A stretch of 64,000 nucleotides of DNA from positions 62,001 to 126,000 of the forward strand of contig NIVC01000954.1 of the NCBI GenBank assembly GCA_002269645.1, given 5' to 3'. This stretch comes from Macrostomum lignano (taxonomy: Eukaryota). Made by a program: the position numbers and the translations under genes. Position 1 is the stretch's first letter; each line of letters starts with the position of its first letter. Shown in pieces: positions 8,482-61,810 of the stretch. The notes below the pieces were generated by a model. That model was not told where the DNA came from and did not search any database. It saw only the letters and a list, made by a program, of their open reading frames with translations.

Positions 8482-8751
8482 ACGCTTCTTTTTAATATAT
8501 TCTAGTTCCTCACCTGCTTTAGACATGTCACTGTATGTTTTCTTTGCGTCGAATATGTTCTTCGCTGTGGTAGCTGTTTTACCTATTGCATCAGCTCCAC
8601 TCACAATTTTACTTCCATGATTTGATAAAAAGTTTGTGACACCACTGATCATATCACCAATTCCTTCACCCTTTTTATCAGCTAGTAGCTGTGAATCAGA
8701 CGTTTCAATCTGACCCTTTGCTCGTTTGCAGTTTGTTCGATATGCGCTCAT
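8470..8751 (-). CDS. Small basic protein with a GEGIGDMISGVTNFL amphipathic-type motif, directly downstream of the integrase
   Basis: Lies within ORF 8302..8829, ATG at 8751. The resemblance to small Polinton/Maverick proteins is an inference. Confidence 0.4.
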
Positions 8752-10796
8752 TTTTAGTTGAAAAATTTGCTGGTAGAAGCTGAGATTTGTAAAATGATCA
8801 GATAATTTCTTCCCCATTCTCATCCTCAATAATGTAGGTTATGGGATTTGAAGAAACTATTTTCTTTATCCTAAACACTTCTGAAATTTTCCAATAACCT
8901 CTTCGACCCTTTTCAAAGTGCTCCTTATATCTATAGATATGAACTTTGTCACCTACTTTGAAGTTTGGTTTCTCATTTGAATACTCGAAGGAAGGCTTTA
9001 GTAATCGCTCAGGATGTTTAGATGCTTCTGAAGGAGTTATCAGAATTTCAGAATGGATTGTATTGTTGTATTTTTCAACAATAGTTGGCAATATGTGGAG
9101 CCACTTCTGGTTTCCTTGTAGATCAAATTCAAACCAGAGTTTATTTGTGAGAGTACGATTGAACCTCTCAATCATTGCATTCTTGGACTCGCCATAAATT
9201 GAAAACATCTTGTTAATATATTCACCCTTTTCATCCTTCTTTCTAATGTTGTCTTTTGAAAACGAGTATAACTTGTACATATGCTGATTATAAAACTCTT
9301 TGCCTTCATCTACAAAGTCTCTCTGATCGTCTTCCTGATTCCTTAAATACTTTTTGGAAAGCTTCTGCAACTTCCGCTCCCGTCTTTGTTTTCAAAGGAA
9401 CTGCCCAGGTGTAACGTGTACAACCATCTATGATAGTGAGAGCATATTTGTAACCTCTTTCATGTGGTAGGATAATGATATCTGCATGCCAAATTGTGTT
9501 TTTTGCATAGTGAATCATTTTTCTAAACAGTCTTGGTTTTCTATATTCCCTACGCAATTTTACTGCATCTTCATAGCTAAGACCTTTTCCGTATATAGTT
9601 AGACAGTCTATACAATTGTTGGGGTTGTGAGTATGAATTCCTAATCCAAACCGAACTTTAGCATTGATAATACGCTTTACTAGATTTCTAATGAGTCTCT
9701 CCTTTACCGACAAGTCACTAGTTGGAATCGCATCTGAATCAGCTATCATTTTTTCATCAGCAATATGCTTCTTTGCTAAAGCTTCCTCTGGAGTTGAAGA
9801 CGTCTTTTTAGCATCTCTATAGTTTTTGTCATGATAATAAGCAGTCCAATCGATTGGGTTGATTGGTGGACTGTCATACCGAGGCCAGTCTGTAATTGGA
9901 TTGAGTCTTTTGTCTGGATTTGTATCAGGCAGTTGATCCTCAATCTTTCGAAAGAGGCTGGACTTTATCTTAAGGCATCATCAGGATTGACCAGATCCTT
10001 CAGCCCCACCTCCATACTCGTAAAGTCTCTGAACCTTCTCCATATCCTTGTCAACTTTAATGGACGTACCATAGGTACTCGATCAAAGATCAGACTTAGG
10101 AGCTTGGCTGCGGATTTCCACCACGTCCTCAAGCTTGTTACCGTTGGGAACAGGAATTACCTGTGTTCCTTCAGAAGATTTCTCAGCTGAAGTGGTACTT
10201 GAGGCTTTTGAAGGAGTTCCCGCAATTTGAAGGTGTCGCCATTAACTAAGCACTTGTTTAACCTTGGTTATAATGTTTGTGTATTGATCCCCATAAAGAA
10301 ATTTCAATGCAAATTCGCCTGTTACAAGGGTGATTCCATTGTCTAGTAAAATATTCTTAGGTTGGTTTTTTTATTGATGCATACATAAAACAACTGGTAG
10401 GTCGGATAAGACTTTTTATAGTCTAATCCTATATACTAAAAATGGTCTGTCTGTGTCTATCTATCTATCTATCTATCTATCTATGTGATCGATTAGAGAA
10501 AAAAATGGCTTGACCGATTTTGTTCAAACTTGCACTGTTCGATCAGAAATTTTCCCGTGACTGTACATGCATCGCGGCTAAGAAATTTCTCGATGCTAAA
10601 GGCATTAAATATTCGAAAAACATGCTTTTTTGCAAAGGTCAAGCAAACTTTTCGACTTGAAATGCATTGTAAGAATGCTAGAGAAAAAACTGACTGGTTG
10701 AATTCTGGTTCTGAAATAGATTGCATCATCACTGAATTGTAACTCCGACTTGAATTGAAAATGCAGTGTGGAAGCGTAGCACCAGACTTGATTTAA

Positions 10797-12470
10797 ATCA
10801 TAGTAGAAAATAGTTTAAATAGTTTAAAAATCATAGTAGCGTCATGTAAAAAATCGTAGAAGCGTCATATAAAAAATTATAGAAGCGTCATATAAAAATC
10901 ATAGATGCGTCATTTAAAAAATCATAGAAGCATCATATAAAAATCATAGATGCGTCATTTAAAAAACCATAGAAGCATCATGTAAACAATCATAGAAGCG
11001 TCATTTAAAAAATCATAGAAGCATCATATAAAAATCATAGATGCGTCATTTAAAAAATCATAGAAGCATCATGTAAACAATCATAGAAGCGTCATTTAAA
11101 AAAATCATAGAAGCGTCATATAAAAATCATAGATGCGTCATTTAAAAAATCATGGAAGCGTCATGTAAACAATCATAGAAGCGTCATGTGAAAATCATAG
11201 AAGCGTCACGTAAAGAATCATAGAAGCGTCATGTAAACAATCATAGAAGCGTCATGTAAACAATCATAGAAGCGTCATGTAAAAAATCATAGAAGCGTCA
11301 TGTAAACAATTATAGAAGCGTCATGTAAAAAAATCATAGAAGCGTCATGTAAACAATCATAGAAGCGTCATGTAAACAATCATAGAAGCGTCATGTAAAC
11401 AATCATAGAAGCGTCATGTAAAAAATCGTAGAAGCGTCATTTAAAAAATCATAGAAGAGTCATGCAAAAATCATAGATGCGTCATTTAAAAAATCATGGA
11501 AGCGTCATGTAAACAATCATAGAAGCGTCATGTAAAAAATCATAGAAGCGTCATATAAAAATCATAGATGCATCATTTAAAAAAATCATAGAAGCGTCAT
11601 ATAAAAAATCATAGAAGCGTCATGTAAAAATCATAGAAGCGTCATGTAAACAACCATAGAAGCGTCATGTAAACAATCATAGAAGAGTCATGTAAACAAT
11701 CATAGAAGCGTCATGTAAGCAATCATAGAAGCGTCATGTAAACAATCATAGAAGCGTCATGTAAAAAATCATAGAAGCGTCATGTAAAAAATCATAGAAG
11801 CGTCATGTAAGCAATCATAAAAGCATCATGTAAACAATCATAGAAGCGTCATGTAAACAATCACAGAAGCGTCATGAAAAAAATCATAGAAGCGTCATGT
11901 AAACAATCATAGAAGCGTCATGTAAACAATCATAGAAGCATCATGTAAAAAAATCATAGTAGCGTCATGTAAACAATCATAGAAGCGTCATGTAAAGAAT
12001 CATAGAAGCGTCATGTAAACAATCATAGAAGCGTCATGTAAACAATCATAGAAGCATCATGTAAAAAAATCATAGTAGCGTCATGTAAACAATCATAGAA
12101 GCGTCATATAAAAATCATAGATGCGTCATTTAAAAAATCATAGAAGCGTCATGTGAAAATCATAAAAGCGTCACGTAAAGAATCATAGAAGCGTCATGTA
12201 AACAATCATAGAAGCGTCATGTAAACAATCATACAAGCGTCATGTAAACAATCATAGAAGCGTCATGTAAAAAATCATAGAAGCGTCATGTAAACAATCA
12301 TAGAAGCGTCATGTAAACAATCATAGAAGCGTCATTTAAAAAATCATAGAAGCGTCATGTAAACAATCATAGAAGCGTCATGTAAAAAATCATAGAAGCG
12401 TCATGTAAAAAATCATAGAAGCGTCATGTAAAAATCGTAGAAGCGTCATTTAAAAATCATAGAAAATCAT
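10797..12470 (+). repeat. ~23-bp satellite (AATCATAGAAGCGTCATGTAAAC)n, array 1
   Basis: Direct tandem array of about 70 variable 22-24-bp units. Confidence 0.97.
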
Positions 12471-13310
12471 AAAAATCAAAAATTAAATGCAGCTATAATG
12501 CTGTGCTGGGGAGAAAAACTGAGACGTAAAGGCTCTCAGAGAATAACTGCTGAGATTACGGGGGGGGGGGTTCTGAGATGTCAAAGCAAAAGTCAGAAGC
12601 TACTTCAAAGTTCATGTACTTTACTCAATTTTTTTATTGCATTCTTTGTTGGCTCGCCACGGGAGGCGCTTATAGAAGAAGAGTCATGTAAAAAATAAAA
12701 GTAGCACTACGAGCGTATGTACGAGCTATACATAAAATAAAAGTCATGTTCAAGTTAAAAGATTCATTTGGGAATTGCTACGATGTCAAAGCTTGGTGGA
12801 AATCGTTATAGTGCTGTGATTCTTAAAGAAGGAATCACTAAAATGTCAAGGCTTAGGGGAGAAGAATTGCTGAGATTTCAAGGCTTTAGGTTGGGTTAAA
12901 GTTAGGTTTAGGTCAGGTGTGGGTTGAGGGTTATATTTTATCGGGTTTCAAGGTTAACAGAATAACAGGGGATTTTTTAGATTTCACGGTTTATGGAGGC
13001 CATCGCTGACATGTTAAGGCTTACGGGGGGAATAGCTGAGATGTCAAGGCTCACGGGGTATAAATGAGATTTCAAGGCTAAAGTCAGAAGCTACATGTAG
13101 TTTATTGAAAACTTTTTATTACATTATTTGATGCCTCCTCAGGGGAGGGATCGCTGATAAAAAAAGCGTAATGTAAAAAATAAAAGAAGCTTCATGTCGA
13201 AGTTAAGAGATTCATTTGGGAATCCCTACGATGTCGAGGCTTGCAGGAAATCGTTATAATGCTGTAGTAGTGCTATAGTGACTCTTAGAGACAATTACTG
13301 AAATTTCAAT

Positions 13311-13373
13311 GTTAGGTTAGGGTTAGGGTTAGGGTTAGGGCTAGGGTTAGGGTTAGGGTTAGGCTAGGGTTAG
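13311..13373 (+). repeat. Interstitial telomere-like (TTAGGG)n tract
   Basis: About 10 TTAGGG/CTAGGG units; a degenerate tract also at ~12885-12935. Confidence 0.9.
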
Positions 13374-14401
13374 AAGGTTGACAGATATTTTTAGATTTCC
13401 AAGGCTTATTGGGGGCATTGCTGAGATGTCAAGGGGGGAAGTTGATATGTCAAAGCTTGTGGGGGGGAATTACTGACATGTCAAGGCTTACAAGGTTTGA
13501 CAGGAGATTTTTTTAAGATTTCAAGGATACATGTAGCTTATTAAAAAAACGTGTATTGCATTTATTTGGCTCCCCAACGGGGGGCGTAGATTGCTAGTAA
13601 ATTCCTATAGTTACTTTCACGACTTGAGGAATTGTCTGTGTTATCAGAAGATTTAAGCTCTAATGCAATCTTTCGCTCAACGTGAACCAGGTCAATCTTT
13701 TTTACCTTTTCGAATCCAAAATATTTTTTCTGCTAAAACTTCATGTAGTCTACCTAGTCTTATTTGAATAACTTTAATCTTGTATGAAATTATTAGCTCT
13801 TCTTGAAATAAATCGTAAAGAATTTGGTCATACCCCACCTTGTCGTCAATTGGTTTCAAGAGAATTTCTCTAATTTTTTGCTCCATTTTTGCTTTATAAA
13901 ATTTAACAAGTGCTTATCGATCGCCCCTAAGGGACGCGAGCTCTGCTCGATGACTAGCAAGGACATTGACTTTCCTCACTTAGGCCACAAGGTAACCTGC
14001 AAAAGAATACCCTGGAATATAAAATTCTCCAGGATATTTTCCAGTAGAGAAGATGGGTGGCAGTTTTGTCATAGCTGACTGAATGTCTAATGCAGAACCA
14101 AGAAATAGTCGTTTATTGAAGGCCATTTTATAGAGATTTTTTTATTTCTTTATTTTTACTTGTAAAGTGTTTGTATAAATTCCATTGAATACTTAATAGA
14201 CTGAATTTTAAGACAAGTCGAGACAATAATCCAAAGCGACATGTTACACAGAACAGATCGCTGATAAAAGATCTTGGTATATTTTAAAAGAACCTTATAA
14301 GACGATGCATAACAATCCTTAGTCACAGTCACAATGACAATCCTTAGTCACAGTCCTTACAGTCCCCCTTAGTCACAGTCACAGTGATAGTCCTTAGTCA
14401 C

Positions 14402-15042
14402 TCATGTTGAGCAGCTTGATGTTGAGCAGCTTGGTGTTGAGCAGCTTGGTGTTGAGCAGCTTGGTGTTGAGCAGTTTGGTCTTGAGCAGCTTGGTGTTGA
14501 GCAGCTTGGTGTTGAGCAGCTTGGTATTGAGCAGCTTGGTGTTAAGCAGCTTGGTGTTGAGCAGCTTGGTCTTGAGCAGCTTGGTGTTGAGCAGCTTGGT
14601 ATTGAGCAGCTTGGTGTTAAGCAGCTTGGTGTTGAGCAGCTTGGTGTTGAGCAGCTTGGTGTTGAGCAGCTTGGTGTTGAGCAGCTTGGTATTGAGCAGC
14701 TTGGTATTGAGCAGCTTGTCTTGAGCAGCTTGGTCTTGAGCATCCTCGTATGTCGGAGGTGCCTCTGGAACGTCTACATCTAGCGAGCGCTCGATTTCTA
14801 GTTGGCGTTGATTTTCAAAGATAGAACGCTCCTTCGCAATGTTTTTTTTTAATTAGTCTAAGCATCGCTATGTCGTTCTCAATTTTGTTGAAGTGTACGC
14901 GATACTGCTCAAGGAATTGATTCTCATTCATAGACGTGACGAAGCTAGCATCGGGGTATTGTGTGTGAATCAAACCTCTCAAATTGTTTCTCTCTTGTGT
15001 GCTCACAAGTATTCTAGCACGCCTAGTTGGATTTCCGGGCAT
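14402..15042 (-). CDS. Unknown ORF MPGNPTRR... ending in a 15-bp minisatellite encoding (HQAAQ)n; copies 15973-16545 and 22876-23494
   Basis: Present in all three units with indels. The GAGCAGCTTGGTGTT minisatellite has about 17-22 units, differing between copies. Confidence 0.5.
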
Positions 15043-16935
15043 TCTGTTCGTTCGGAATGAAAGCTGATAATTTAAGCAGAGGACACTTGTTGTGGATACT
15101 TTATTTTGGGTATGCCCTTAAGTGCTGTCTAAAATGTCTTATGCCAGCCGCTAATTGGGTGCCACTGCCCTGCCACTGCCTTGCCACTGCCCTGTTACTT
15201 TCACGACTTGAGGAATTGTCTGTGTTATCAGAAGATTTAAGCTCTAATGCAATCTTTCGCTCAACGTGAACCAGGTCAATCTTTTTTACCTTTTCGAATC
15301 CAAAATATTTTTCTGCTAAAACTTCATATAGTCTACCTAGTCTCATTTGAATAACTTTAATCTTGTATGAAATTATTAGCTCTTCTATAAATCGCAAAGA
15401 ATTTGGTCATACCCCACCTTGTCGTCAATTGGTTTCAAGAGAATTTCTCGAATTTTTTGCTCCATTTTTGCTTTATAAAATTTAACAAGTGCTTATCGAT
15501 CGCCCCTAAGGGACGCGAGCTCTGCTCGATGACTAGCAAGGACATTGACTTTCCTCACTCAGGCCACAAGGTAACCTGCAAAAGAATACCCTGGAATATG
15601 AAATTCTCCAGGATATTTTCCAGTAGAGAAGATGGGTGGCAGTTTTGTCATAGCTGACTGAATGTCTAATGCAGAACCAAGAAATAGTCGTTTATTGAAG
15701 GCCATTTTATAGAGATTTTTTTATTTCTTTATTTTTACTTGTAAAGTGTTTGTATAAATTCCATTGAATACTTAATAGACTGAATTTTAAGACAAGTCGA
15801 GACAATAATCCAAAGCGACATGTTACACAGAACAGATCGCTGATAAAAGATCTTGGTATATTTTAAAAGAACCTTATAAGACGATGCATAACAATCCTTA
15901 GTCACAGTCACAATGACAATCCTTAGTCACAGTCCTTACAGTCCCCCTTAGTCACAGTCACAGTGATAGTCCTTAGTCACTCATGTTGAGCAGCTTGATG
16001 TTGAGCAGCTTGGTGTTGAGTAGCTTGGTGTTGAGCAGCTTGGTGTTGAGCAGTTTGGTCTTGAGCAGCTTGGTGTTGAGCAGCTTGGTGTTGAGCAGCT
16101 TGGTATTGAGCAGCTTGGTGTTAAGCAGCTTGGTGTTGAGCAGCTTGGTGTTGAGCAGCTTGGTGTTGAGCAGCTTGGTGTTGAGCAGCTTGGTATTGAG
16201 CAGCTTGGTATTGAGCAGCTTGTCTTGAGCAGCTTGGTCTTGAGCATCCTCGTATGTCGGAGGTGCCTCTGGAACGTCTACATCTAGCGAGCGCTCGATT
16301 TCTAGTTGGCGTTGATTTTCAAAGATAGAACGCTCCTTCGCAATGTTTTTTTTAATTAGTCTAAGCATCGCTATGTCGTTCTCAATTTTGTTGAAGTGTA
16401 CGCGATACTGCTCAAGGAATTGATTCTCATTCATAGACGTGACGAAGCTAGCATCGGGGTATTGTGTGTGAATCAAACCTCTCAAATTGTTTCTCTCTTG
16501 TGTGCTCACAAGTATTCTAGCACGCCTAGTTGGATTTCCGGGCATTCTGTTCGTTCGGAATGAAAGCTGATAATTTAAGCAGAGGACACTTGTTGTGGAT
16601 ACTTTATTTTGGGTATGCCCTTAAGTGCTGTCTAAAATGTCTTATGCCAGCCGCTAATTGGGTGCCACTGCCCTGCCACTGCCTTGCCACTGCCCTGTTA
16701 CTTTCACGACTTGAGGAATTGTCTGTGTTATCAGAAGATTTAAGCTCTAATGCAATCTTTCGCTCAACGTGAACCAGGTCAATCTTTTTTACCTTTTCGA
16801 ATCCAAAATATTTTTCTGCTAAAACTTCATATAGTCTACTTACTTACTTACTTACTTACTACTGACGGGGGGCGCAGGCGCCGCGAATAGGCCGCGAGGC
16901 CCCTATCGCAACCCCAAGGTAAAAGAGCACAAGGA

Positions 16936-22021
<5,086 letters not shown>

Positions 22022-23672
22022 TTAGCCAGCAGCCAACTACTTAGCAGCCACCTGCCCCGCAAAAAAGCAGCAGGGGGGATCCGTCCCCCACCAGCAGACC
22101 AAGACGAGGAAGCTAGCCGCTTCCACGCCAGGCCAGAACGAAAAGGAGGGGGAAGAGCCTCCTCGAAAAACGAAAAGCTGGCGGATGTCACAGAGTCCCT
22201 CGGTTTAAGTTGCCGTTTGCCCCCCTTCATATAGTCTACCTAGTCTCATTTGAATAACTTTAATCTTGTATGAAATTATTAGCTCTTCTATAAATCGCAA
22301 AGAATTTGGTCATACCCCACCTTGTCGTCAATTGGTTTCAAGAGAATTTCTCGAATTTTTTGCTCCATTTTTGCTTTATAAAATTTAACAAGTGCTTATC
22401 GATCGCCCCTAAGGGACGCGAGCTCTGCTCGATGACTAGCAAGGACATTGACTTTCCTCACTCAGGCCACAAGGTAACCTGCAAAAGAATACCCTGGAAT
22501 ATGAAATTCTCCAGGATATTTTCCAGTAGAGAAGATGGGTGGCAGTTTTGTCATAGCTGACTGAATGTCTAATGCAGAACCAAGAAATAGTCGTTTATTG
22601 AAGGCCATTTTATAGAGATTTTTTTATTTCTTTATTTTTACTTGTAAAGTGTTTGTATAAATTCCATTGAATACTTAATAGACTGAATTTTAAGACAAGT
22701 CGAGACAATAATCCAAAGCGACATGTTACACAGAACAGATCGCTGATAAAAGATCTTGGTATATTTTAAAAGAACCTTATAAGACGATGCATAACAATCC
22801 TTAGTCACAGTCACAATGACAATCCTTAGTCACAGTCCTTACAGTCCCCCTTAGTCACAGTCACAGTGATAGTCCTTAGTCACTCATGTTGAGCAGCTTG
22901 ATGTTGAGCAGCTTGGTGTTGAGCAGCTTGGTGTTGAGCAGCTTGGTGTTGAGCAGTTTGGTCTTGAGCAGCTTGGTGTTGAGCAGCTTGGTATTGAGCA
23001 GCTTGGTGTTAAGCAGCTTGGTGTTGAGCAGCTTGGTGTTGAGCAGCTTGGTGTTGAGCAGCTTGGTATTGAGCAGCTTGGTGTTAAGCAGCTTGGTGTT
23101 GAGCAGCTTGGTGTTGAGCAGCTTGGTGTTGAGCAGCTTGGTGTTGAGCAGCTTGGTATTGAGCAGCTTGGTCTTGAGCAGCTTGGTCTTGAGCATCCTC
23201 GTTTGTCGGAGGTGCCTCTGGAACGTCTACATCTAGCGAGCGCTCGATTTCTAGTTGGCGTTGATTTTCAAAGATAGAACGCTCCTTCGCAATGTTTTTT
23301 TTAATTAGTCTAAGCATCGCTATGTCGTTCTCAATTTTGTTGAAGTGTACGCGATACTGCTCAAGGAATTGATTCTCATTCATAGACGTGACGAAGCTAG
23401 CATCGGGGTATTGTGTGTGAATCAAACCTCTCAAATTGTTTCTCTCTTGTGTGCTCACAAGTATTCTAGCACGCCTAGTTGGATTTCCGGGCATTCTGTT
23501 CGTTCGGAATGAAAGCTGATAATTTAAGCAGAGGACACTTGTTGTGGATACTTTATTTTGGGTATGCCCTTAAGTGCTGTCTAAAATGTCTTATGCCAGC
23601 CGCTAATTGGGTGCCACTGCCCTGCCACTGCCTTGCCACTGCCCTATGGCAGTGACAGATTTTTTCTCTCTA

Positions 23673-26299: not shown

Positions 26300-27700
26300 A
26301 AAACGAGGACTATGATTCTTAGTACAAGGAAGCACTCATACTCCGCGACATAGACAGTGGTGATGAAATGTACAAAGTATTCACTGATTGGTCAAAAGTA
26401 AATTATAATAAGTTCGATTTCGAGTCATGTAAAAAGGTGTGGAATAGCACCAGTACCAGCTCTGCTGATGCACAGGACAGACTTACTGTCGGTACGTTGA
26501 AGAAAATGGGCTAGTGAAGAAAACTATGGTAAATATAAGGAATGGAAAATCAAATATGATTACTATGGTAGGATTGAGTATCTTGATGATAATTTCACTG
26601 AATTTAACATAACCAACTTTGTTTATGAATATAAGAAGAATAATATTATTTACAATAGCGATTGTATTTACTATTTTGATGATGAGAAGTAGAGAGAACT
26701 AATTAGTATAAATGACATATTTCTTAAAATATCAAATCTTGTTAGCAGTGAGTTAAACCACCGAAAGACTAGACTCGAAGTTGCAATTAGGAGGGCTGAT
26801 GATAAAGAGAAGTTAAAAGCACTTGAAAAGAAACTACAGAGTACAATGAAGAATATAAATTCAATACAAGGAGCCAACAAGCTCAAACAGGTAACTAATT
26901 TGTTCAAAGAGAGGTTTACTAACAATGAAATTGAATTCGATATGAAATGGAATTTGCTAGGGTTTAACGATGGAGTATATGATCTCGCTACAGGTGAGTT
27001 TCGCAAGCATAGATATGACGATTACGTTACTAAATCGGTGGGATATAATTACTCGGATATACTTAAAGTGAGTGATGACGACTATGAGTTCATTGTTAAT
27101 CTTCATAACCAAATTCATCCCGATCCAGAAAATAGAAAGAGTTGGGAATCCGTTATAGCCACAGCTCTAATGGGAAAGAATGTTGAAAACTTTATAATGT
27201 TTGATGGCGCTGGTGGAAATGGCAAGGGGGTTGAGGACAACCTACTTCTTAGAACTCTAGGATCTGATTATGCAGCACCACTGAGTCCTGATGTTTTTGA
27301 ATTCACCAATAAGAATAGACAAGCCACAACCTGCCCTAGCACAAATTAATAAAAAGAGTTTGGTTAACAGTCTATTCTTAGACTGCGTTCTTAGTCTATT
27401 CAGTCTATTCTTAGTCTATTCTTGGTCTTGAACAACGCATCAATAAAATTACTAACTGGTGGGGGAGTTATTAAAGCTAGAAATTTATATTCAAGCCAGT
27501 GTAATGTTGTTTTACACGGAACCCTAATAGTCGAATGTAATAACAAGCCCAAATTTAGACAAAATATTGGAGATGCAGAAAAAAGACGAATTATAAATAT
27601 TAATTACCCATGCAAATATACAACAGATACCGACATCATTGATCATTAGAAACACATTTATAAAGCCGATTATAAGGAAAGATATAGACGAACGATAAAT
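26300..27700 (+). pseudogene. D5/P4-type primase-helicase remnant (PriCT-2-like, D5_N, SF3 helicase)
   Basis: DYDS*...DWSK...CKKVWNS...LTVGTLKK; NLLGFNDGVYDLATGEFR; Walker A GAGGNGKG; IKLLTGGGVIKARNLY; ECNNKP; RRI. Multiple stops and frameshifts. Confidence 0.85.
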
Positions 27701-34559: not shown

Positions 34560-35814
34560 CGGTCAAGCGCCTCACTGATGGACGTCGATACTAGTTTAAT
34601 TGAGCGATCACGCCTTCTAGACAGGTAACGCCGGACGGTCGACTTGGCCCTCTGTCCTGTAATAGTCATAATGTCGTTCAGGTTGTGTCCACATTCGTGC
34701 AGATCTGCGATGCGCGTTACTCTAATACAATGGTTAGTATACGCTTTGGACAAATGGCAGACTTGGCACAGATGACGCATGAAGTTGGCTAACCAGTTAA
34801 TGCCTCAAACTTGATTGGCCGAATACCGAAGGTTACCGCTTCCATCATTGGTCAATGGTCGTGGAAAGGATAAATCCTTTGTGCTCTCCGGTACAAGGCC
34901 GTAGTAGTAGACTACAAGCTCTCGCTGTTGTCCATAGAGACGAGCTTGCTTTGAAGACGCTCTGCTGTGCTTCTGTCAAAGTATTTCCGCAGTCGATCTA
35001 GGTCACCATCCTCGATTAGGGGATATTGTTTTCTGACGGAACCGGATCCAATGAACTCTCGGACTTTTGCGCGTAGCATTCGGTTAGCGGCTGCAAATTC
35101 ACCTCCGGAAATTATGTTGACTGGGCGCTTGAGAATTAGAGCGAAATATCGCTGAATGCCGGCACGAATGCACACCAATGACGCAGGCGAGTAAATTCCT
35201 CCATCAACTTTCTTCAACGAGAAGTAATAGTAGCGCAGAAACTCGCTTAGCATAGCCTCGGACATTGCCACGAGAGACAGTTTTGTTTGTCTTCTTAAAA
35301 AATCCACAAATGCTTTACCATGTTGGAACATCTGTTCTTGCGTAGTTTTAGGAAGCGAATCGATTTCAATGCGATCCAGGTCGCCAACCGTCAGAGGAGC
35401 GTCATCTGATATATCCGGTAGGGGTGTATCCAGAACCGAATGGTCATCCATCGTAGGATCTTCTAAGAAACGGATGAACTCCGCTAGGTCAGCGTCGCCA
35501 GCGTGGTCGGTCGCACTCAGCAGAGAAAGGAAATCCATTTCGCTTGAAGACACTCCGTTGAGAGAATCAGTAGGCAGATTTTTCCAATTTATTAGATGCA
35601 TTTTAGTGGTTGATGTTAAAGCAAGCAAGCTTATATCAAGCCACAGTCCCCTGCATTTCTCTACTCTATATTCACTCGATAGTCTATGGTACAGTTGGAA
35701 TCGCTCCATAGCGCTTCCTATGGCCGTCTCGATTTCGTTGTCGATGTCTATGGCCAAAACCTGCGCAGTCTGAATCAGAAGACGTTTCTGATTCGCTGAG
35801 ACATCGTTAAACAA
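34560..35814 (-). pseudogene. Crypton-type tyrosine recombinase remnant with internal deletion
   Basis: N-part FLRYYYFSLKKVDGGIYSPASLVCIRAGIQRY...EFAAANRML...IEDGDL..L; C-part YTNHCIRVT...IMTITGQR...RRY (HxxR, H->Q, Y). Confidence 0.8.
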
Positions 35815-37674
35815 TCGGCGTTAAACAATGCTTCTAATCGAGTATGCTAAACGATAGTGACAATAAGTCTATACATACGGTACTATCGTTAAACAATAAG
35901 CAAAGATCACTCGTGGCTACGCCACCTCCACCTCTTGTTTACCTCTAGTACCGTATGTATAATCTCCCATTGTCTCGAACTTAGAGTTGGTCGTAGAACG
36001 CTAAGATATTTATTCTCATATTCAGTCGTCGATTAGGCGGGGTATCGGTTGTCCGTTTTCGAGTAGATTGATCACCATGGCGATGGCGGAGTCAGCACTA
36101 ATGGGTCTGGAGCTCCTTGCGAGTAACTAGTCTCGGTATGTGATCTGTCAAATTCATTTGGCGTCTTCTTTTGGCTGAGCGAGTCGGGTCCGCGTCGGAT
36201 GTTGCGGCTTTACTCGGAGACTAGAGCTCCCAGACTCAGGAGGCAAAAGCCCGCAGCTGGCAGTGAAGCAGACTGACTGCTTCCTGGCACTCTGCTATCA
36301 ACTTGACCACTCTACACTGCTGCGACCGTCCGTGCGCTGTATCCAAGTTTCTTACGTCAACACGAGGATTCGCAGCCGCTGCCTGATTGACAATTGGCGA
36401 CTTCATCATGCATCTATCACAGGCACGCATGAGACAGGCAGGTGAACCGTTCGAAGCAGCGAAGAAGTACTGCACGTTAAAATCGATTGGCTTAGGGCTG
36501 TGCCATGCAGGGGAGGGTGTAAAATGGCATTTTTAAATGCACAAGCAAGCACAATGCATAGCAATATAAGGTAATCCATTCAATCTACCTCGAACGGCTT
36601 CCACCGTCTAAATGTAGACCGGCTGATCTAGGGACGCTCAGAAAACTCGGCTAGGCACTTACTATGCAGCGACTTCAGGATGGCACACAACTATCGCTTC
36701 TGCCGCTTCTCCCTTTCGCCTGTCACCCGACCGACGCCCGTGATTTTCTCGTGCTTTGCTCGCTGACACGTGAATTTTCATCTTCGTAGAAGTCGACAAT
36801 GTGCTTTTGTTTCCCTGACTCGCTTCACTGCTTGCTTTTTCAGAATCTTAGCTGTGGCCCCAAAAACCCCAGCACTGCCTTGCGCTGTGCTCCAACTGGT
36901 GTGCTTGCCACAATGCACAGTGTATTGTGCCAATTCCATCCGACAGATGAAAAACGCCGTACTTTTGCAATCGCATCCTTTATTACCTGCCTTGCTATTT
37001 CAGCATTTTTGTGTTGACGCTCCGCCTTGGCTAAATGGCGCTGCTCCCTGCGCAGTTGAGACGCAACTTGCTTATGGCCCACTGATGACTGAAGATAGCA
37101 TCTTCATAGTGCCCAACCAACTTCCTGTGCTCTCATAACCGGGTGGCATCGGAGCGAGAAAGTTCACCGTGTCGGCCTTTTTCCGGCATCTGAAAGTGGT
37201 AAACAGCCACGTTAGCTTCGATAGGGCGCTGTTTCTGCTTCACCTGCTTTCTAGAAGGTTTACACGGCATGCTCTGAAAAGGTTCGATAATATATAATTA
37301 GGACGGAATTTCAGCCCAGATATGTGGCACATATGCTTCTCTCTGTATCATATGTACTGCTGCCAGTAGTAGTAGCATTTTTGCTTATTTTTTTTCAATT
37401 ACAGTTTTATACGAGTATGCCTTTTTGTATCATTTCAAGGATTTCAAGTTAATAAATTGTCAACTTTTTTTGAGCATGAATATAAGTTATTAGAGTATTA
37501 TAATATTTATGATCCCCCATAATAATTTATCTTTATCAAATGATTTACTTAATTTACTTAAAATTTACTTTAGTTCAATATAACTCTTTCTGGTAGAAAA
37601 TCATCAAACGGCATCAAAGCTAGACTCGCTTAACTATTGTGAGCAGTATACGTAACATTTTATTCCCTAACTAT

Positions 37675-39299: not shown

Positions 39300-41943
39300 C
39301 CTCAATTATTTTTGCATGACGCTTCTATGATAAACATTTTTAATAAGCTACATTTAGGGTTGTTATAAGCTACCCTAACCCTAACCCTAAACCCTAACAC
39401 CAACGTTAACACTAACCATACAGCCTGACATCTGCATAAGTCTGTGAAGCGCTAGTAGGATTTTTTAGCTTAGTATCTTAGCGTTGGGGAGCCAAAAATG
39501 CAGTACAAGTTTTGTAATAAGCTACATGTAGCATCTCTTTGCAATATCTCTTTGCAATATTTGCATCTCTTTGCAATAATATACTGCTTTGCAAGCAGTC
39601 CCTTGTAAGCCTTGACATGTCAGTAATCCCCCCACAAGCTTTATTATATCAACTTCCCCCTTGGCATCTCAGCGATGCCCCCCCCATAAGCCATGAAATC
39701 TATAAAAATCTGTCAACCTTCTAGCCCTAACCCTAACCCTAACCCTAAAGCATTGAGATTTCAGTAATTCTCTCTAAGAGTCTCTCTAAGAGTTTACATG
39801 ACGCTTCTATGATTTTTTACATGACACTTTTATGATTGTTTACATGACGCTTCTATGATTTTTTACATGACGCTTCTATGATTTTTTACATGACTTCTAT
39901 GATTGTTTACATTACGCTTCTATGATTGTTTACATGACTTCTATGATTGTTTACATTACGCTTCTATGATTGTTTACATGACGCTTCTATGATTTTTACA
40001 TGACGCTTCTATGATTGTTTACATGACGCTTCGATAATTGTTTACATGACACTTCTATGATTTTTTGTATGACGCTTCTATGATTGTTTACATGAAGCTT
40101 CTATGATTGTTTACATGACGCTTCTATGATTGTTTACGTGATGATTCTATGATTGTTTACATGACGCTTCTATGATTGTTTACATGACGCTTCTATGATT
40201 TTTTGTATGACGCTTCTATGATTGTTTACATGACGCTTCTATGATTGTTTACATGACGCTTCTATGATTTTTTGTATGACGCTTCTATGATTGTTTACAT
40301 GACGCTTCTATCATTGTTTACATGATGCTTCTATGATTGTTTACATGACGCTTCTATAATTGTTTACATGACACTTCTATGATTGTTTACATGACGCTTC
40401 TATGATTTTTTACATGACGCTTCTATGATTTTTTTACATGACGCTTCTATGATTGTTTGCATGACGCTTCTATGATTGTTTACATGACGCTTCTATGATT
40501 GTTTGCATGACACTTCTATGCTTTTTTTACATGACGCTTCTATGATTTTTTTACATGACGCTTCTATGATTTTTCATGACGCTTCTATGATTTTTTACAT
40601 GACGCTTCTATGATTGTTTACATTTACACGACGCTTCTATGATTGTTTACATGACGCTTCTATGATTTCTCACATGACGCTTCTATGATTTTTTACATGA
40701 CGCTTCTATGATTTTTTACATGACGCTTCTATAATTGTTTACATGACACTTCTATGATTGTTTACATGACGCTTCTATGATTTTTTACATGACGCTTCTA
40801 TGATTGTTTACGTGATGATTCTATGATTGTTTACATGACGCTTCTATGATTTTTTACATGACGCTTCTATGATTTTTTTACATGACGCTTCTATGATTGT
40901 TTGCATGACGCTTCTATGATTGTTTACATGACGCTTCTATGATTGTTTGCATGACACTTCTATGCTTTTTTTACATGACGCTTCTATGATTTTTTTACAT
41001 GACGCTTCTATGATTTTTCATGACGCTTCTATGATTTTTTACATGACGCTTCTATGATTGTTTACATTTACACGACGCTTCTATGATTGTTTACATGACG
41101 CTTCTATGATTTCTCACATGACGCTTCTATGATTTTTTACATGACGCTTCTACAATTGTTTACATGACGCTTCTATTATTTTTTACATGACGCTTCTATG
41201 ATTTTTCATGACGCTTCTATGATTGTTTACATGACGCTTCTGTGATTTTTCATGATGCTTCTGTTTTTTTTACATGACGCCTTTAGTCCTTTATTAGTCC
41301 TTTAATAAAAGCTTTCAATAAAAAAACATTTCTCTACTAAGATTCGAACCCAGGTCGCTGCATTAGCAGTCCAGTCTGTTCACATCTAGGCTAGCTCTTA
41401 TCGAATTTATAAATGAAATTGTAGCACTTTTATAATTCAACACTCACTCACGAAGCAGTTATGACATAATCAATTTCCCAGGCAAGTCAGTATCAGTCTC
41501 AATTAAAGTTGACAATATGGTTACGCAATCTAAATCAAGTCTGGTGCTACGCTTCCACACTGCATTTTCAATACTGTAACGCAATTCAGTTATGATGCAA
41601 TCTATTTCAGAATCAGAATTCAACCAGTCAGTTTTTTCTCTAGCATTCTTACAATGCATTTCAAGTCGAAAAGTTTGCTTGACCTTTTCAAAAAAGCATA
41701 TTTTTAGAATATTTAATCCTTTTAGCATCGAGTAATTTCTTAACTATGATGCATGTACCGTCACGGAAAAATTTCTGATCGAACTGCAAGTTCGAAGAAA
41801 ATCGGTCCAGCCATTTTTGCTAAAATCGAAAATCGATTGCGTACAAACAAGCAAACAAGATTTTCATTTTTAGTATATAGGATTTTGCTAAAATCGATTG
41901 CGTACAAACCAGCAAACAAGATTTTCATTTTTAGTATATAGGA
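39300..41943 (-). mobile_element. Second copy of the satellite-carrying non-autonomous Helitron (3' end uncertain)
   Basis: TCCTATATACTAAAA at 41943 and again at 41882 (61-bp duplicated 5' end); core 41290-41830; satellite 39795-41283; CCCTAA tracts at 39372-39400 and 39724-39748. Confidence 0.85.
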
Positions 41944-42149: not shown

Positions 42150-45100
42150 GCACAAATTTGCTAAAACCGTCCGGCACTCCTAAGGCGTGTCCCAAGAAGA
42201 AAAGCAGCTTAAGAATAGCCAGCTCAAGCGTTGTGGCGTGCGGCGGATGCGGCGGGAGGGCATGGGCCATAAGTGAGATCCTCCGTTGCGGCAGCTCGGA
42301 AATGTTCTCTAATGCCTTTGGGCCATTTACGGCAGAGCTGGCCCTTGAGCCCGGACGCTAGCAGAAGTTCCGTAAGCGCGGCGATGGCTTTTTCGCGATC
42401 ACTCTGGGCCGCAGCATCCATCACTTGAGGCCGAGTGCCTCTTGATCACTTGATTGCCTCTGCTAATTCTGTTCTACTGAAAAAGCGGGGCGGCGACGGC
42501 ACTGGCGACGGTCGGCGGAAGCGCGGAGTCGGCGGCGTGGGCGGCGTCGGGAAATCGTCCAGATTTATAGTATCCGGTTGAGGCGGCGGTGTCAACACGC
42601 CCATATACTGCCCCGGCGGCGGCGAGAGTGGCTGAGGTGGCGTGTCCAACGCATCAACTCTCGGGTCTAGCAGCACTGGTGGAGCTGCCTTTGGCGAAAC
42701 TCGAGCGTTAGTGGCCAAGAGGTCTTGCAGCGCTGGGAGCTGCTCTTCTCCAGGTTCCTCTTGCAGGGAGCTCGACAGGCTGCCTATGAGGTCGAACACA
42801 CTTTCGGCTTCGCTCGGACGCTGATTAATTGGCGAGTTCTGTGCCGGTGGCTCAGCTGGCGGCTGTGCCGGTGGAGGTGTAGACCGGACAGGCGTGGTTG
42901 GATTGTCAGTAGCCGGTAGTCCGGCGTCAGCCTTGATCGCATGAGGCGGATCCAGTCGGAGCCTAATGACGGCGGCGCGTTCCCTGGCGACCGCAAGGCG
43001 CTCGCCGAGGTGAGGCGGCTGCAGCGGAGCCAGCCTGTGCACCTCGATTCTGGCTTCTTGACGCGGATGCTCGTCCCAGCGGCTCCGTCGACGGCGAGCC
43101 GGATCTTGGCTGGGCACTGGGATTAATCTAATCCTGCTGGCTGGCCGCAAGGGTTGCGTGCGCTTACGGCCACTGGCCGGTGAGGGTGTCCTTGATGGTT
43201 CCCGATCTCGGCGCCTCTTATTTTCTTTGCCCGTCATTTTTGCTTTTAGTTTTGCTTTTCAGCGCTGGAACAGGCACGAGGCCGGTGGAAAAAGTGAATT
43301 AATCGGCTCAAGTAGGACTTTGACTTTGGTTTAAGAACCAAGCGGTCAGGTTCCCTTCGAGCCCTAACTGGCCTGTCATTGACGGCCCATTCGGCTTGAC
43401 TGGTTGATTGGCCGACAAAACATGACTATGACATAGATTATACCTATCAGAGTCTAAGTTAATCCTATCGCTATTTCTATTTTCAGGTCGCCTCAGCGGT
43501 TCAACTGTAGGAGCGGATGGAGCGTCGCAAGAATCATACGGCAGTGACTCAAGCTCTACTGTCCTCTCCATAACTTCAGGTTCGTGGATGCGGACTTCAG
43601 CTGGACGTGCGCTTGGCTGAGTGGCTGATAGGAGTCGCCAGCGATAGGCGGGTCTCGTGTCCATGTCGTCTTCTTTATCAGAGTCCTCAGAGATGGCGGG
43701 GAGTGTCGCGGCTCCGGCGTCAACCTGTCGAACTCGGCGTTGCTGCTTCGGTTCAGCTGGCCCTTCGAGATCTGCAATTGGATAATCTGAAGTGGGCACA
43801 AGGAGGTTTCGGCGATGAACTACCATCTCGTCCGGTCGTTCTCGAGGGTGTCGAACCTTCCGTCGAATCTTGTAGACGACTTCTCCTTTGCTTTCCACCA
43901 CTTCATACAACGATCTCCTTGGCCTGTGAAATTTTACTGCTTCGTCTTCGTGTAGGACCGGGTTGTTCAAGAAAACGAGATCTCCCGACTGTAGCTTCTT
44001 AGCTGCTGGTCGGTTCTCGTAGTGTTCGTCTCGCGCTTGCTGATGCAGGCCTAGCTGTTCCTTGGCGAGGTCCGTGGCGTGCTTGAGGCGTTGCTGAAAC
44101 TCTGCGACGTAGTTAGGCAGGTTGGCATACTCCGGGAGTAGCTTCAATGAGTTGTCGAAAGGCATCCTGTATTCTCGGCCGTAGACTAAGAAGTAAGGCG
44201 TATAGCCTGTGACTGGATGAACGCTGGATCGGAGAGCAATCATGCACGCTGGCAGGAATGTGTCCCAATCGCGATGATCATGCTCGAGGAGACACGTAAG
44301 AATGCTGTTGATCTGCTTATTCAAATTTTCTACCAGTCCGTTAGACGCTGAATTGTACGGCGTGGTTGTCGTGTGCCTGATCGCGTAGAGATCACAGAAC
44401 TTTTTGAAGGCGTTTCCTGTAAAGTTCGTGCTAAAGATATCGGAAACTTTGATGTCGCACAGCAGAGTGTCAGGATGTATCGATGACCTCCTTTAGACGG
44501 TTGCGCAATCGGTCCGATCACATCCATGTGAAGTTTTCCAAAAAGTTTGCAGACTGGAAAACTCTGCACTGGCACTTGCTGTTTTCGTCGTGACTTGCTC
44601 TCTAGGCAGGTTCGGCATTTGCTGACGTAGGTCTCAACAGCTTGGACTAGACCTGCTCGCCAGAATCTTTCGCGCACACGTTGGGCGGTCTTCCGCTGTC
44701 CTTGGTGTCCTGCTAAAGGCGAATTGTGGAGCTCGTTAAAAACTTCGTCGTCGAGTGCTTCCAATAAGACAATCTTCGGCGGAGTGTCTTTTTCCTTCAT
44801 GTTGATCATGAGTAGATCTCGCTCGAGGAATAGTAACTCGTAGTATCCTAGCAGATTCCGTTGCTCTCTGCTAAGTCGTAATCGATCGTCAAACGCTGGT
44901 TTCGGTTGATTCTCCTTGATCAACTTGTAAACGTAGCCAATAGCTGGGTCATCCTCTTGAGCTTTGATGAGCTTGTCGCGCGGCAATGGCGGCTTCAGAT
45001 GATCCGTAAGCAATGCTAGGCAGCGCGGCAGACTTTGAGAAGTTGCGAGCTGGGGAGATGCTTCAGCTGTACGTACTCTGTCTTCCTCGTATGCAGACTT

Positions 45101-48100
45101 CGTCACCTCTGCATAGGAACGCTTCGTTTTCGGCGTAGGACGAAGGCGCGTCATGGCGCCAAACATATCGTCCACGCGTTGATAATGGGTGGTCGGCTGC
45201 AGGCTCATGGAAGAGCAACGAGACGGCTCGACCTGCTGAGTCTGTCGGCTCATGGGAGAGCAGCGGGACTCCTCAGCGGTAAATTTTCGACCGAGATCTG
45301 AGTAGTGGCGCTCGACTGGGAGGGCTGCTGGAGCGGTGGCCTCCAAATCTTCGTCCAAGTCAGTCTCCAAACTCTGTAGGTAGACCTGATGGCTGTCGTG
45401 GAAGAAGGCTGATGGTACAGTGGCTTCTCAAACTTCATCCAGGCTGGTCTCCTTGAAGTGACGGCGAGCGTGGGTGGCTCGGCAGAGGGCTGCTGGTGCG
45501 GTGGCCATCCAAGCTGTCTTCATCCAAGCTTCCTGTCTCCGGGCGTCGACGTGAACAGTGGAGAACTCGGCAGAAGGCTGCTGGTGCGGTGGCCTCTGGT
45601 TCGTTGTCCAAGTCGGTCTCTGCCTCTGGATCGCGATTGTGGGTCTCGATTGTGAGGGCTGCTGGTGCGGTGGCCTCTGAATCGATGCCCGGATTAGTTT
45701 CCTTAATGTGGCGGCACTCACACTGGGTGTTGTCTCCTGTCTCCTCGCGGTGCAAGCCAGGACAGCGTCGACGTCTTGGAGTACTCCGTAATCGCATTCT
45801 AACGGAGTCGTGTCCGGGCGTCTTGATAGTGCGTCGGCGTTGGTGTGGTCAGTACCCTTGCGATGGGAGATGATGAACTGAAATTCGCTGATCCTCTGGA
45901 CCCATCGACCTAGAATCCCTGTAGATTCAGTCTGACGTAACAGCCAGAGCAAGGCCTTATGGTCGCTTCTTACTTCGAATTTTTTTCCTATTAAGTATTC
46001 TCGAAAGTGTCGCATGGCATCGACAATAGCCAGTAGCTCCCGCTTGGTGACCGTGTAGCGAACTTCCGGGTTACGGAGCTTGCGACTGAAAAATGCGATC
46101 GGTCGTTCTAATCCATCGGATTGTAGTTGTCCTAGACATGCACCGATTCGGGTGTCGGATGCGTCGGTATCCAGGATAAACTTGACCTTCGGATCCTCAG
46201 TGAACTCTGGGAGGGCGAGTACTTCAGTTGAGCATAGCTTGCTCTTCAGAGTCTCAAAGGCAGTCTGATGCTGCTGCGTCCAATGACGCTGGAATCCTTG
46301 CAGGTCCTTGCGTGTCAATGCGTGTAACGGGGCCGCGATGCCCGAGTAATCTTCGACGAACTTCTTGTAGTAATTGGCGAGACCAAGAAAGCTTCGTAGT
46401 TTACGAACAGTCCAAGGCGTTGGCTAACTGCGTATCTGCGCGATCTTGTCTTTACTGGTTCGTAGGCCTTCCGGTGTAACCACGTGGCCTAGATAATGGA
46501 GCTCCTTTTTGAATAAATGGCATTTTTTCGGTTTTAGCTTCAAGTTGGCGGCTATAATTCGATTTAGGACTTGTCGTAGACGGTCTAAGTGATCTTCGAA
46601 TGTCACTGCGTGTACAACGATATCGTCCGTGTAACCAAGAGCGGCCTGCGGTGCTAGTCCTTCAAGCAGTTGGTTGATACTACGCTGGAACGATCCGGGG
46701 CTTTCAGTTAGTCCCATTGGTAGCACCTTGAAGCAAAATTGTCCCCGATCGAGCACAGGGAAGGCAGTGATGTCCTAGTCTTCCTCGCGGAGAGGGATCT
46801 GGTAGAAGCCTTGTACCAGGTCGAGGCTTGAATACCACTGCGCTCCTTTAAGTTTGGCGAAGGTTTCCTGAATGCGCGGGATCGGGTACGGGTGCTTCAG
46901 CGTCACTTCGTTGATTGCTCTGAAGTCGTGCACAATGTGAATCGTCTTGTCCTTCTTTGGTACTAGGATCATCGGTGAATTGTAGCTGGAGTACGTTGGC
47001 CGTATGATGCCTTTCTTCAGCATATCATCGAGCATCTGATCCAGTTGCGGTCGTAGATTCGGAGGTATCCGGCGAGGAGGAATCGCGATTGGTGTCGAGT
47101 CTGTGAGCACAATCTCATGAGTTACCAGGTGTGTCAGTCCGTGGTCCAACGGAGTTAGGGAGAATGCCTTCTCGCATTCCTTGAGTAGATCTTGAACCTG
47201 GAGCCTATGGTGGCCGTTCAGCTGGTCTCCGACGTCGACCTCGTTGATCCAACTGTCAGTCGTTTCTTCAGTCGTTATCATTTGACGAACTTCTGGCTCA
47301 TTTGACTCGCTGAAGTACTCGAGGTCCTGGGTCTTGAGTGGCGTAGCTACTCCCATTAGCATGTTGCGACGCAAGTGAACCTCTGTATCTGATAGGTTGA
47401 GTACTTCCGTCACTCCTCGACCTGTCATCGTATGCAGGACCGGGGCTGCGTCTAACTGGTGATGCTTCGCTCGCAGTCCTGATTTGAGTGGTTCGATAAT
47501 CATCGGTGAACCGTAGTTCTGCTGATGACCTTCGGCTAGCTTAATGGCGACGAGGCAGGAACATTGAGGCGGCAGAATGCATTTTTTCAGCGACGTACAC
47601 TCGGCAGGCCCTCAGTTCTCTCCTTGAATAGCGTACCGGAAGTCGGGTGCCTTGTCGGAATGTGAGCATTCCTTGCTGGAAGTCCAGTCGTTGGCAATGA
47701 CTCCGGATGAAATCAATTCCTAAAAGATTCTCACAGTCTCCTTCGGCGACGAAGAATTCGGTTTCCGCGACATAGTCCCCGAATTCAATTGATAGGGTAA
47801 CCTTGGCGGTGAGACTTAACTCGTCCCATCGTACATGGCGACTCGGTTAGGGTAAGCAGGTGCAACTATACAACGTGGTGAACGACGCCTAATAGCGGCC
47901 CAAGTGGTCGCTCCGAGAAAGTTTCTTCTGCTTCCGCTGTCTAGCAGAAAGGTGACATCTCGTCGAGCCACTCGTCCTGTAATAAATGGGTCGGCGTCAC
48001 GCGCATGGACTGTATTTACAAAGGAGGCGTCCACGAAACCTCCATCCAACGTTTCCTCGTTTACTGACGACTTGGACGAGTCAGCTGCCGCGGCTGCGGG

Positions 48101-57412: not shown

Positions 57413-58074
57413 CTTTAAGATAAAAAAATGCGACGCAAAGGTCTGAAACAAAAATGGGAGCGTTCCGCCAGTTAAGAAATCTGTAAACTCAAATATGAAG
57501 TTGTTTGTGTAAAGTTTTCGAACAATTGCATTTATTAATCAAAAGTACCAGAATTTATGCTACCCAGGGAGTCACCCCTAAGCGTAAATGAATTGCAAAT
57601 TATTAGTAATTCATGTATACATAAATTATATACTACAATATTCCTAACAAGGACTTACTGTACCCTCTCTTAAACAAGAAGGGGATAATAATTAATACAA
57701 CTAACAAAACGGAGAATTAAAGAATAGACAGAAATCCAACAAATGACAGGACTTTGTGAAAGGTCTTTTAACATTTTTTCTATCCTCTTTTAGATGACTG
57801 GACATTATTCAAAGAAAATAGGTAGCGCATAATTAAGTGAATGGACATTATTTAAGGTAGCGTATAAATATGTGTTTGAACATTATTCAAGGTAGCGCAT
57901 AATTATGTGAATGAACATTATTCAAGGTAGCGCATAATTATGTGAATGAACATTATTCAAGGTATTCAAGCCAATAACGTCAACGTATCTGTGAAACACG
58001 AATGGGATTTGGAATTTCTAAGTTTCTTAGACCCTTAGCACATTCTTCTCTCTTCCATCCTTCCAATTGTTTGT

Positions 58075-61339: not shown

Positions 61340-61810
61340 ATAATTGCTCGTACTGCCAATATTATTGCACAGACCTGAGACTGATTAAAAGTTGAAATTC
61401 AGGCTTGACTGTGCCGACCTTGCTTCCTACTCCAAACCCTTACCCCCTCAATCTTGAGGCAGGCAGTGTACATTTCTAGCCCTCCGCTTCCGAATGTACA
61501 CACATGGACTGGAGAGCCCACACCGACTCTGTTTTATCTGTCTTATCGAGTTTTTATTTTTTTTTTACAACAATAGCCTAGCCCTAGGACCTGATAAATA
61601 ACTTGCTATTAAGTTTGGTTATATCTGATTCTTCAGACATTCAACTCAATCTGCTAAAAACTCTCCTATCATTTCAAGCATTCCATTCTATATTCTATTA
61701 TTCAATTATTCTATTACTATTTACTACTCTATTATTCTATTACTATTCTATTACTATTCTATTACTATTACTTTTTTAGTATTCTATACTATACTATAAA
61801 TACTATAAAT

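Follow-up and report, generated by a model that had tools for sequence, protein, structure and literature searches.

Does a group I intron reside, and does it move, in a protein-coding gene within the chromosomes of an animal? The question is raised by a 64,000-nt stretch of Macrostomum lignano DNA (assembly GCA_002269645.1, contig NIVC01000954.1, positions 62,001 to 126,000 of the forward strand), hereafter named the window, for which an initial annotation made from the letters alone proposed that a Polinton-like element, endogenous to an animal-like genome, has a group I intron in one of its protein genes. In nuclear genomes, introns of this group are called exclusive to the rRNA genes of microbial eukaryotes (PMC3679873), and in animals they are described as residing mostly in the mitochondria of sponges, corals, and placozoans (PMC11835236). 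We find that the proposal is supported in part: the intron and its setting are as described, but the interrupted gene is viral and not a gene of the host. In addition, the window holds one member of a family of group I introns in animal endogenous viruses, for which a restriction-derived nuclease is the likely mobility factor.

The sole Rfam match within the window is to RF00028, the group I intron model, at 9939–10305 on the minus strand (74.3 bits, gathering cut-off of 50, E 5.5e-17 in a search of the 64 kb). The whole intron runs from 13994 to 9930 on the same strand and ends in G; the end of exon 1 at 13995, both intron ends, the terminal G, and an insert at 10427–13597 are all where they had been placed. 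Exon 1 of the viral PLA2-integrase gene (13995–14126, minus strand) comprises 44 codons ending in ...YSFAG and is collinear with intronless alleles, and exon 2 (8700–9929, minus strand) encodes the remainder of a parvovirus-like PLA2 domain and an rve integrase (PF00665). The intron itself consists of a 5' piece (13598–13994, minus strand) with P1 and its guide sequence, P2, the 5' strand of P2.1 with its extension, and the start of a nuclease frame; of a piece with the 3' part of the nuclease gene and the 3' strand of the P2.1 extension helix (10246–10426, minus strand); and of the ribozyme core from P3 to P9 with P5abc and the terminal G at 9930 (9930–10245, minus strand), which is supported by the Rfam match, pairing, and covariation. 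The 5' part of the nuclease gene, of the Eco47II family (PF09553; 13598–13886, minus strand), is frameshifted here and open in 10 of 19 other copies. A non-autonomous Helitron-like insert of 3,171 bp (10427–13597, plus strand), absent from all 19 other copies, splits the nuclease gene. The window copy is a dead fossil, because insert, frameshifts, and stops break the intron frame, the integrase frame is broken near 9306–9391, and the fifth pair of P1 is lost. The initial annotation, which was right about the ribozyme and its boundaries, had missed the nuclease frame, and it needs amending in that this copy is dead and the element belongs to a large family.

Helices P3, P4, P5, P5a/b/c, P6/6a/6b, P7, P8, and P9 all pair in the window copy, and P7 reads GACUU/AAGUC as claimed, followed by a 6-nt extra stretch. 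The proposed P1, (C)AGGU/GCCU(G), is found in most copies (CAGGU/GCCUG, with a U.G pair at the 5' splice site), but the window copy itself has only four pairs (GCCUA); the other two 5' junctions in the window read GCCUG. Covariation was assessed on 16 cores from family 1 (the family of the window), family 2 (see below), and one outside contig, i.e. from three lineages only. Pairing is seen in 98.3% of 1,072 cells, and two-sided (compensatory) change affects 22 of the 68 base pairs, among them 4 of the 6 in P7. Shuffled controls never scored as high (0/500), and slid controls gave no more than 5 such pairs. Because the same three-lineage rows served to draw the structure, the shuffle result should not be read as a probability, large as the contrast is. 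The G–C binding pair in P7 is kept in 15 of the 16 rows. A second intron type has a P1 of CGGGU/GCCCG, which covaries with the exon, and single-strand folding of one natural intron (z −2.7) lends modest support. Together, the Rfam score and the covariation bear out the claim of a group I intron: it is a genuine one, the fold of which is kept by selection. P5abc has an A-rich bulge and a GAAA loop, P2 and P2.1 are present, and P7.1/7.2 are missing, features which we take to mark subgroup IC1; by these criteria, the layout is IC1-like. Three loci carry at the same site a different, IE-like core with a covarying P1. In these (L086:365–690, L087, and L079), P2, P2.1, and P5abc are nearly letter-identical to those of the IC1-like introns, and the start of the 3' exon reads one residue longer than usual. 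By sequence, the IE-like intron looks like a chimeric ribozyme.

The intron is not a singleton. Exact-pattern searches of the 764-Mb assembly (5,269 contigs), which give lower bounds, returned 146 5' junctions and 22 intronless alleles, with 0 hits for each control. Helitron-free and intron-free copies, both of which had been proposed as checks, therefore exist: the 19 best other matches all consist of exon 1, an intron of 836–891 nt at the same place, and exon 2, with no insert, and the intronless alleles present an unbroken 452-aa PLA2-integrase frame reading YSF(T/A)G-PGT. Because these natural alleles keep the frame open, the junction is fixed between Gly44 and Pro45. The predicted YSFAG/PDT join is thereby right in position, but with PDT the window copy departs from most others, which read PGT. 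Insertion in a conserved PLA2 motif was also correctly called, since the intron lies between the Gly and Pro codons of the calcium loop, at the only Gly-Pro of the 452-aa protein (GGN|CC). In two sets of loci compared with Rfam, 7 of 14 and 4 of 12 scored above the cut-off; L076 and L079 gave none even at E 0.1, though their introns are present by alignment. Across intron-bearing and intronless alleles, the PLA2 codons of exon 2 have a ratio of nonsynonymous to synonymous substitution rates (dN/dS) of 0.09. All 19 intronless family-1 alleles, which form a single lineage, differ from intron-bearing ones at 4–5 of the 10 bases round the site, compared with ∼7% nearby; the differences cluster at −7 to +3, with a mosaic pattern elsewhere. 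This divergence would fit alleles that have escaped the intron as well as a short tract that arrived together with it. The exon junction expected from intron-bearing family-1 alleles is missing from the assembly (0 of the 22 intronless matches).

Which elements, and which host, carry these introns? Family 1 has a double-jelly-roll capsid gene (PF21738) ∼3.5 kb downstream of its junctions on at least 15 contigs, and no such gene was seen for family 2. Conversely, pPolB (PF03175) lies 10.6–11.0 kb upstream of family 2, on the same strand, on 8 contigs, and no PolB was seen near family 1 among the 91 of 974 candidates scored; a 9.7-kb stretch upstream of a family-1 copy proved to be host DNA with no PolB. 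The left end of family 1 starts AGTAGTAGT, an AGT-repeat, and is joined to 12 different host flanks. An AGT-repeat terminus, together with terminal inverted repeats and a 6-bp target duplication, is a trait of Polintons, Mavericks, and adintoviruses. Judged by gene content, the intron-bearing elements are integrated animal viruses of the Polinton/adintovirus type. Wnt genes are present on four intron-carrying contigs (C67, C393, C506, and C952), only 24 kb from the intron on C952, and all 20 sequencing runs holding the stretch, from 7 studies, bear one organism label. By these markers the host is an animal, Wnt as such indicating no more than Metazoa. An origin of the contigs from a contaminating or symbiotic protist or fungus would agree with the fact that published introns of Polinton-like viruses are from protists only, and with the closest relatives of intron and nuclease for which context is available being in giant-virus contigs. 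It is nonetheless extremely improbable, given the Wnt genes, the single label, the 12 flanks at a common left end, and the spread of the 146 junctions over many contigs.

The main feature of the family-1 introns is the nuclease frame, which lies between P2 and the core, in the P2.1 loop, bracketed by a helix of −23 kcal/mol. It is open for 211–228 aa in 10 of 19 copies and broken in the other 9. PF09553 is the only Pfam family returned (31 bits, cut-off 25.9). Its dN/dS of 0.155–0.27 in 6/6 pairs indicates purifying selection, and the catalytic residues E49, D65, E76, and K78 are invariant in 16/16 homologues. The predicted structure (pLDDT 93) is a compact 160-aa fold with no extra DNA-binding domain. 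The best whole-domain match of this model is EcoO109I (Z 9.7, root mean square deviation 3.5, 157 residues aligned; the next match has Z 7.5), and Foldseek lists DdmD, EcoO109I, and AvaII first. EcoO109I recognizes RGGNCCY (table in PMC3299994), and a homologue of Eco47II is predicted to recognize GGNCC (PMC10305163). The insertion site of the intron matches this recognition core. It does so because Gly-Pro codons always spell GGNCC.

Distant relatives of the nuclease (28–39% identity) are found in viral and metagenome contigs, where a C5-methylase-like gene, called by motif, is a neighbor in 35 of 43 cases; the five neighbors tested all match PF00145, and none of the 19 relatives scanned has an intron. 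No methyltransferase gene lies within ∼1.5 kb of the nuclease in L012 or L080. In a tree, the intron-linked nucleases form a clade of their own against the restriction-modification relatives (support 100/100, with long branches). The nuclease probably descends from a viral type II restriction-modification enzyme. As a separate observation, P0062 and L120:1720–3519 are single-frame fusions of a C5 methylase with an Eco47II-family nuclease.

A second arrangement is seen in family 2, the integrase of which is ∼56% identical to that of family 1. Here the intron, at the same insertion site, has no open reading frame (ORF) and is ∼300 nt long, and in L076, L077, L079, and L080 the nuclease (65–68% identical) is free-standing and lies just before the host gene. 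An HNH-like gene, which has 129 matches in the genome, occupies the same slot in 9 of 10 additional family-2 loci. The HNH-like call is based on a motif, on a giant-virus protein weakly matched by BLAST (E 1e-6), and on leads from the Atlas; the protein has no Pfam match. The gene (L085:25–588) is of a zinc-finger type, and it and the Eco47II-like gene are alternatives for the position immediately ahead of PLA2-integrase. In the tree, the free-standing nucleases come out as the sister group of family 1, nested among intronic ones; for the P-series proteins, the intronic context was deduced solely from their tails. The label "intronic" needs three changes, which is consistent with gain or with escape, and the free-standing state need not be ancestral.

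We consider it probable, from these comparisons, that this is a mobile (homing) group I intron of animal integrating viruses, the nuclease of which comes from a viral restriction-modification system. The intron RNA would splice itself out and restore the PLA2-integrase mRNA. The nuclease, parted from its methylase, would cut alleles that lack the intron at a site based on GGNCC, the break would be repaired from a genome that has the intron and would thereby acquire it, and the intron would shield its carrier by splitting the cut site. The likeliest setting for homing would be viral genomes that replicate together, not copies in the chromosomes. Expression of the nuclease could rely on unspliced RNA, once the short exon-1 frame has ended in P1, or on a promoter of its own, which we consider because its start context resembles the A-rich starts of neighboring viral genes.

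Several observations weigh against this reading. A 5-bp site alone would shred host DNA, so that a longer site or a separate compartment has to be assumed; a short-site cutter would be safe only in these conditions, e.g. off the chromosomes in the factory of a helper virus, which is speculation. The 19 intronless family-1 alleles still hold GGNCC, 2 intronless family-2 alleles retain a guide-compatible site, and no clean co-conversion tract of flanking exon sequence was found. Exon 2 is nearly the same in subfamilies 1a and 1c (dS 0.03), yet their nucleases differ (dS 0.21), a pattern that ordinary recombination also explains. The lowest E-value given by Foldseek is for the nuclease domain of DdmD, and likeness in fold does not give specificity. 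In all six intron-bearing loci counted, GGNCC is absent (3–5 expected each, ∼3.5 kb per element), but it is depleted in host flank DNA too (6 against 25.6 expected), so that avoidance by the elements is unproven. Across host DNA of L135 and the window, GGNCC stands at 0.23–0.7 of an order-2 Markov expectation.

The GGNCC counts also bear on another role for the enzyme, that of a weapon against competing viral genomes, whether intron-less relatives or a helper virus, with the intron replacing the methylase as self-protection. Restriction-enzyme ancestry, the compact fold, the absence of the site from the intron-bearing loci examined, and a precedent for an intron endonuclease in phage competition (PMC11620839) would all agree with this role. 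We regard it as unlikely, since host DNA is GGNCC-poor as well and only ∼3.5 kb per element was looked at, and since a nuclease placed in an intron loop at its cut site is the classic layout for homing. The two roles are compatible and both can hold.

The initial annotation proposed a search of RNA data for the spliced junction, and this came out negative: no spliced junction of an intron-bearing allele was present in the contigs of three runs guessed to be RNA, with the limits that contigs drop rare variants and that the runs are not on record as RNA. The only exon joint in these contigs, and in a fourth run of unknown kind, is that of an intronless allele, and unspliced junctions are present. 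Two further points weigh against the homing reading. A 348-aa frame from an internal ATG covers the whole integrase domain and could yield integrase without it, and, as counted by eye among the matches listed (100 of 127), the intron ends in A in 60 of 80 family-2 copies, compared with G in 20 of 20 in family 1. A side observation is that, in L080:2411–2416, the last three bases of the intron are an ATG in frame with exon 2, which could permit unspliced translation. The terminal-A introns of family 2 have a changed P7, GAGCA/UGCUC, in which the G-binding pair is kept (L076, L077, L081, L083, L084, L088, and L090).

The missing spliced junction, the internal start, and the terminal A would agree with an intron that no longer spliced or moved and were simply inherited and recombined, with integrase made from the internal start or from intron-less copies and the nuclease having some other viral role; so would the nuclease being free-standing in family 2 and broken in 9 of 19 family-1 copies. 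Against such a passenger stand compensatory changes throughout the core, a P1 that covaries with the exon in the second intron type, and purifying selection on the PLA2 codons of exon 2 (the dN/dS of 0.09 above), and a terminal-A intron that splices, the anemone ND5-717, is on record (PMC8146996). We therefore think this explanation quite improbable. To return to homing, a broader form of it would hold jointly that the ribozymes still splice in animal cells, that a restriction enzyme was turned into a new homing family via GGNCC, and that one genome houses a whole homing ecosystem. The last part would comprise, at one codon boundary, intronic and free-standing nucleases, a rival HNH-like nuclease, two cores with peripheral domains in common, a dominant terminal-A variant, and escaped target alleles. 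We think this joint reading possible but less likely than not.

Relatives of the intron and the nuclease occur outside the genome too. JGI contig Ga0224502_10072777 (L101), an unrelated metagenome contig, carries the same intron (80.6 bits), the nuclease (55%), and the PLA2 site. Among 165 homologous proteins examined, 10 run on into translated intron core, and of the integrase homologues outside the genome two begin with intron-derived residues and one is intronless. The PLA2-integrase query had no match in viral contigs. Of 69 viral loci with the 5' junction pattern, only L137 and L141 contain cores and none contains the PLA2 gene, and the rest were taken for chance hits. In these two giant-virus contigs, an RNA polymerase subunit-2 gene is interrupted by three group I introns, one of which shares its guide sequence with the introns described here; the contigs are a possible source of the intron. 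Their subunit-2 gene also contains an HNH-like frame and an apparent intein.

How do these introns compare with known systems? Closest are the group I introns in endogenous Polinton-like viruses of the protists Rhodomonas lacustris, Paulinella micropora, and Desmodesmus armatus (PMC12220804), which also match RF00028 and are ∼300–380 nt long. They are reported to lie in a short unannotated gene before the capsid gene, to have no nuclease identified, and to be confined to those protists. The present introns differ in that they occur in an animal, interrupt PLA2-integrase, and are accompanied by a restriction-type nuclease. Restriction-fold PD-(D/E)XK nucleases inside group I introns are known in I-Ssp6803I (PF11645), which has a long target of 17 bp, and I-Bth0305I (Vsr-like/EDxHD). 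Both are prokaryotic and belong to groups separate from Eco47II (PMC3424549), whereas the nuclease here is of PF09553, the relatives of which are type II restriction enzymes beside methylases. With Eco47II, EcoO109I, AvaII, and the restriction-modification pairs of giant viruses it shares Pfam family, fold, and catalytic residues, and it is ∼30% identical to the methylase-linked viral genes. Unlike these, it has no adjacent methylase, and its place is either a loop of the intron or the position just before the host gene. Family 2 resembles phage collaborative homing, in which a free-standing nuclease stands beside the ORF-less intron of a neighboring gene (PMC11296320), but its virus is eukaryotic and two unrelated nucleases alternate in the slot. 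Between them, the two families share pPolB, rve integrase, double-jelly-roll capsid, parvovirus-like PLA2, and the AGT-repeat end with adintoviruses/Mavericks (PMC8502044) and differ in that PLA2 is fused to the integrase, not to a pX domain, and contains group I introns. The same ribozyme fold is found in introns of nuclear rDNA, which come with His-Cys endonucleases (PMC3679873), and in those of animal mitochondria (PMC11835236, PMC8146996), and the terminal A of family 2 is shared with ND5-717 (PMC8146996), but these introns reside in microbial rRNA genes or in the mitochondria of sponges, corals, and placozoans, not in chromosomal protein genes of animals. A full-text literature search, with subscription journals, bioRxiv supplements, and the intron database of PMC11835236 outside its scope, found neither a group I intron in an animal Polinton nor an intron nuclease of the Eco47II type.

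Mobile selfish introns of such a kind have so far been described from microbes and organelles. With >100 copies in chromosomal DNA, whether group I ribozymes work in animal cells becomes testable, and the copies show a route by which these ribozymes enter animal genomes. The nuclease can be aligned directly (∼30% identity) with restriction enzymes that are paired with methylases and links these to an endonuclease carried by an intron, which opens the transition from a short-site enzyme to a homing enzyme to study. Homing or competition among the elements, if true, would mean that they co-replicate as viruses, which bears on the infectiousness of animal Polintons.

The window has several other features. 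The ends of the insert in the intron are TC...hairpin...CTAG, it is placed between A and T without duplication, and it contains a 23-bp × 72 array. We take a 5' TC, a 3' hairpin with CTAG, A/T insertion without duplication, and a Rep/helicase gene to define Helitrons. No Rep/helicase gene was found at 10427–13597, and because no ORF of ≥100 aa is present there, we call the insert non-autonomous. Additional members of this Helitron-like family, likewise fragments with the 23-bp array, are at 39600–41860, 58070–59005, and 60457–61340. The region 13610–23645 is a tandem triplication of a unit that comprises the element's upstream gene (a coding region of 15-bp repeats), exon 1, and the beginning of the nuclease. 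The region includes a second truncated copy of exon 1 and 5' intron (15195–15711, minus strand; tandem duplication) and a third (22226–22614, minus strand), which is cut by a retrotransposon lacking long terminal repeats (16843–22224, minus strand; endonuclease, reverse transcriptase, RNase H) inserted in a duplicated piece of the nuclease gene. Perfect palindromes, short and with loops of 3 nt, some of them common to both families, have been gained or lost in intron loops and near gene starts (window 13920–13950 and 10050–10095; loci L011, L069, L083, L084, L090, and L012) and are possibly mobile hairpins. A fragment of a D5-type primase-helicase (PF08706) is near the element at 26693–27349 (plus strand). 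Farther away are a frame resembling Crypton-type elements by eye, with no Pfam match (34912–35820, minus strand), a degraded Gypsy-type element (42400–49100, minus strand), and an OTU-like frame (62681–63283, plus strand).

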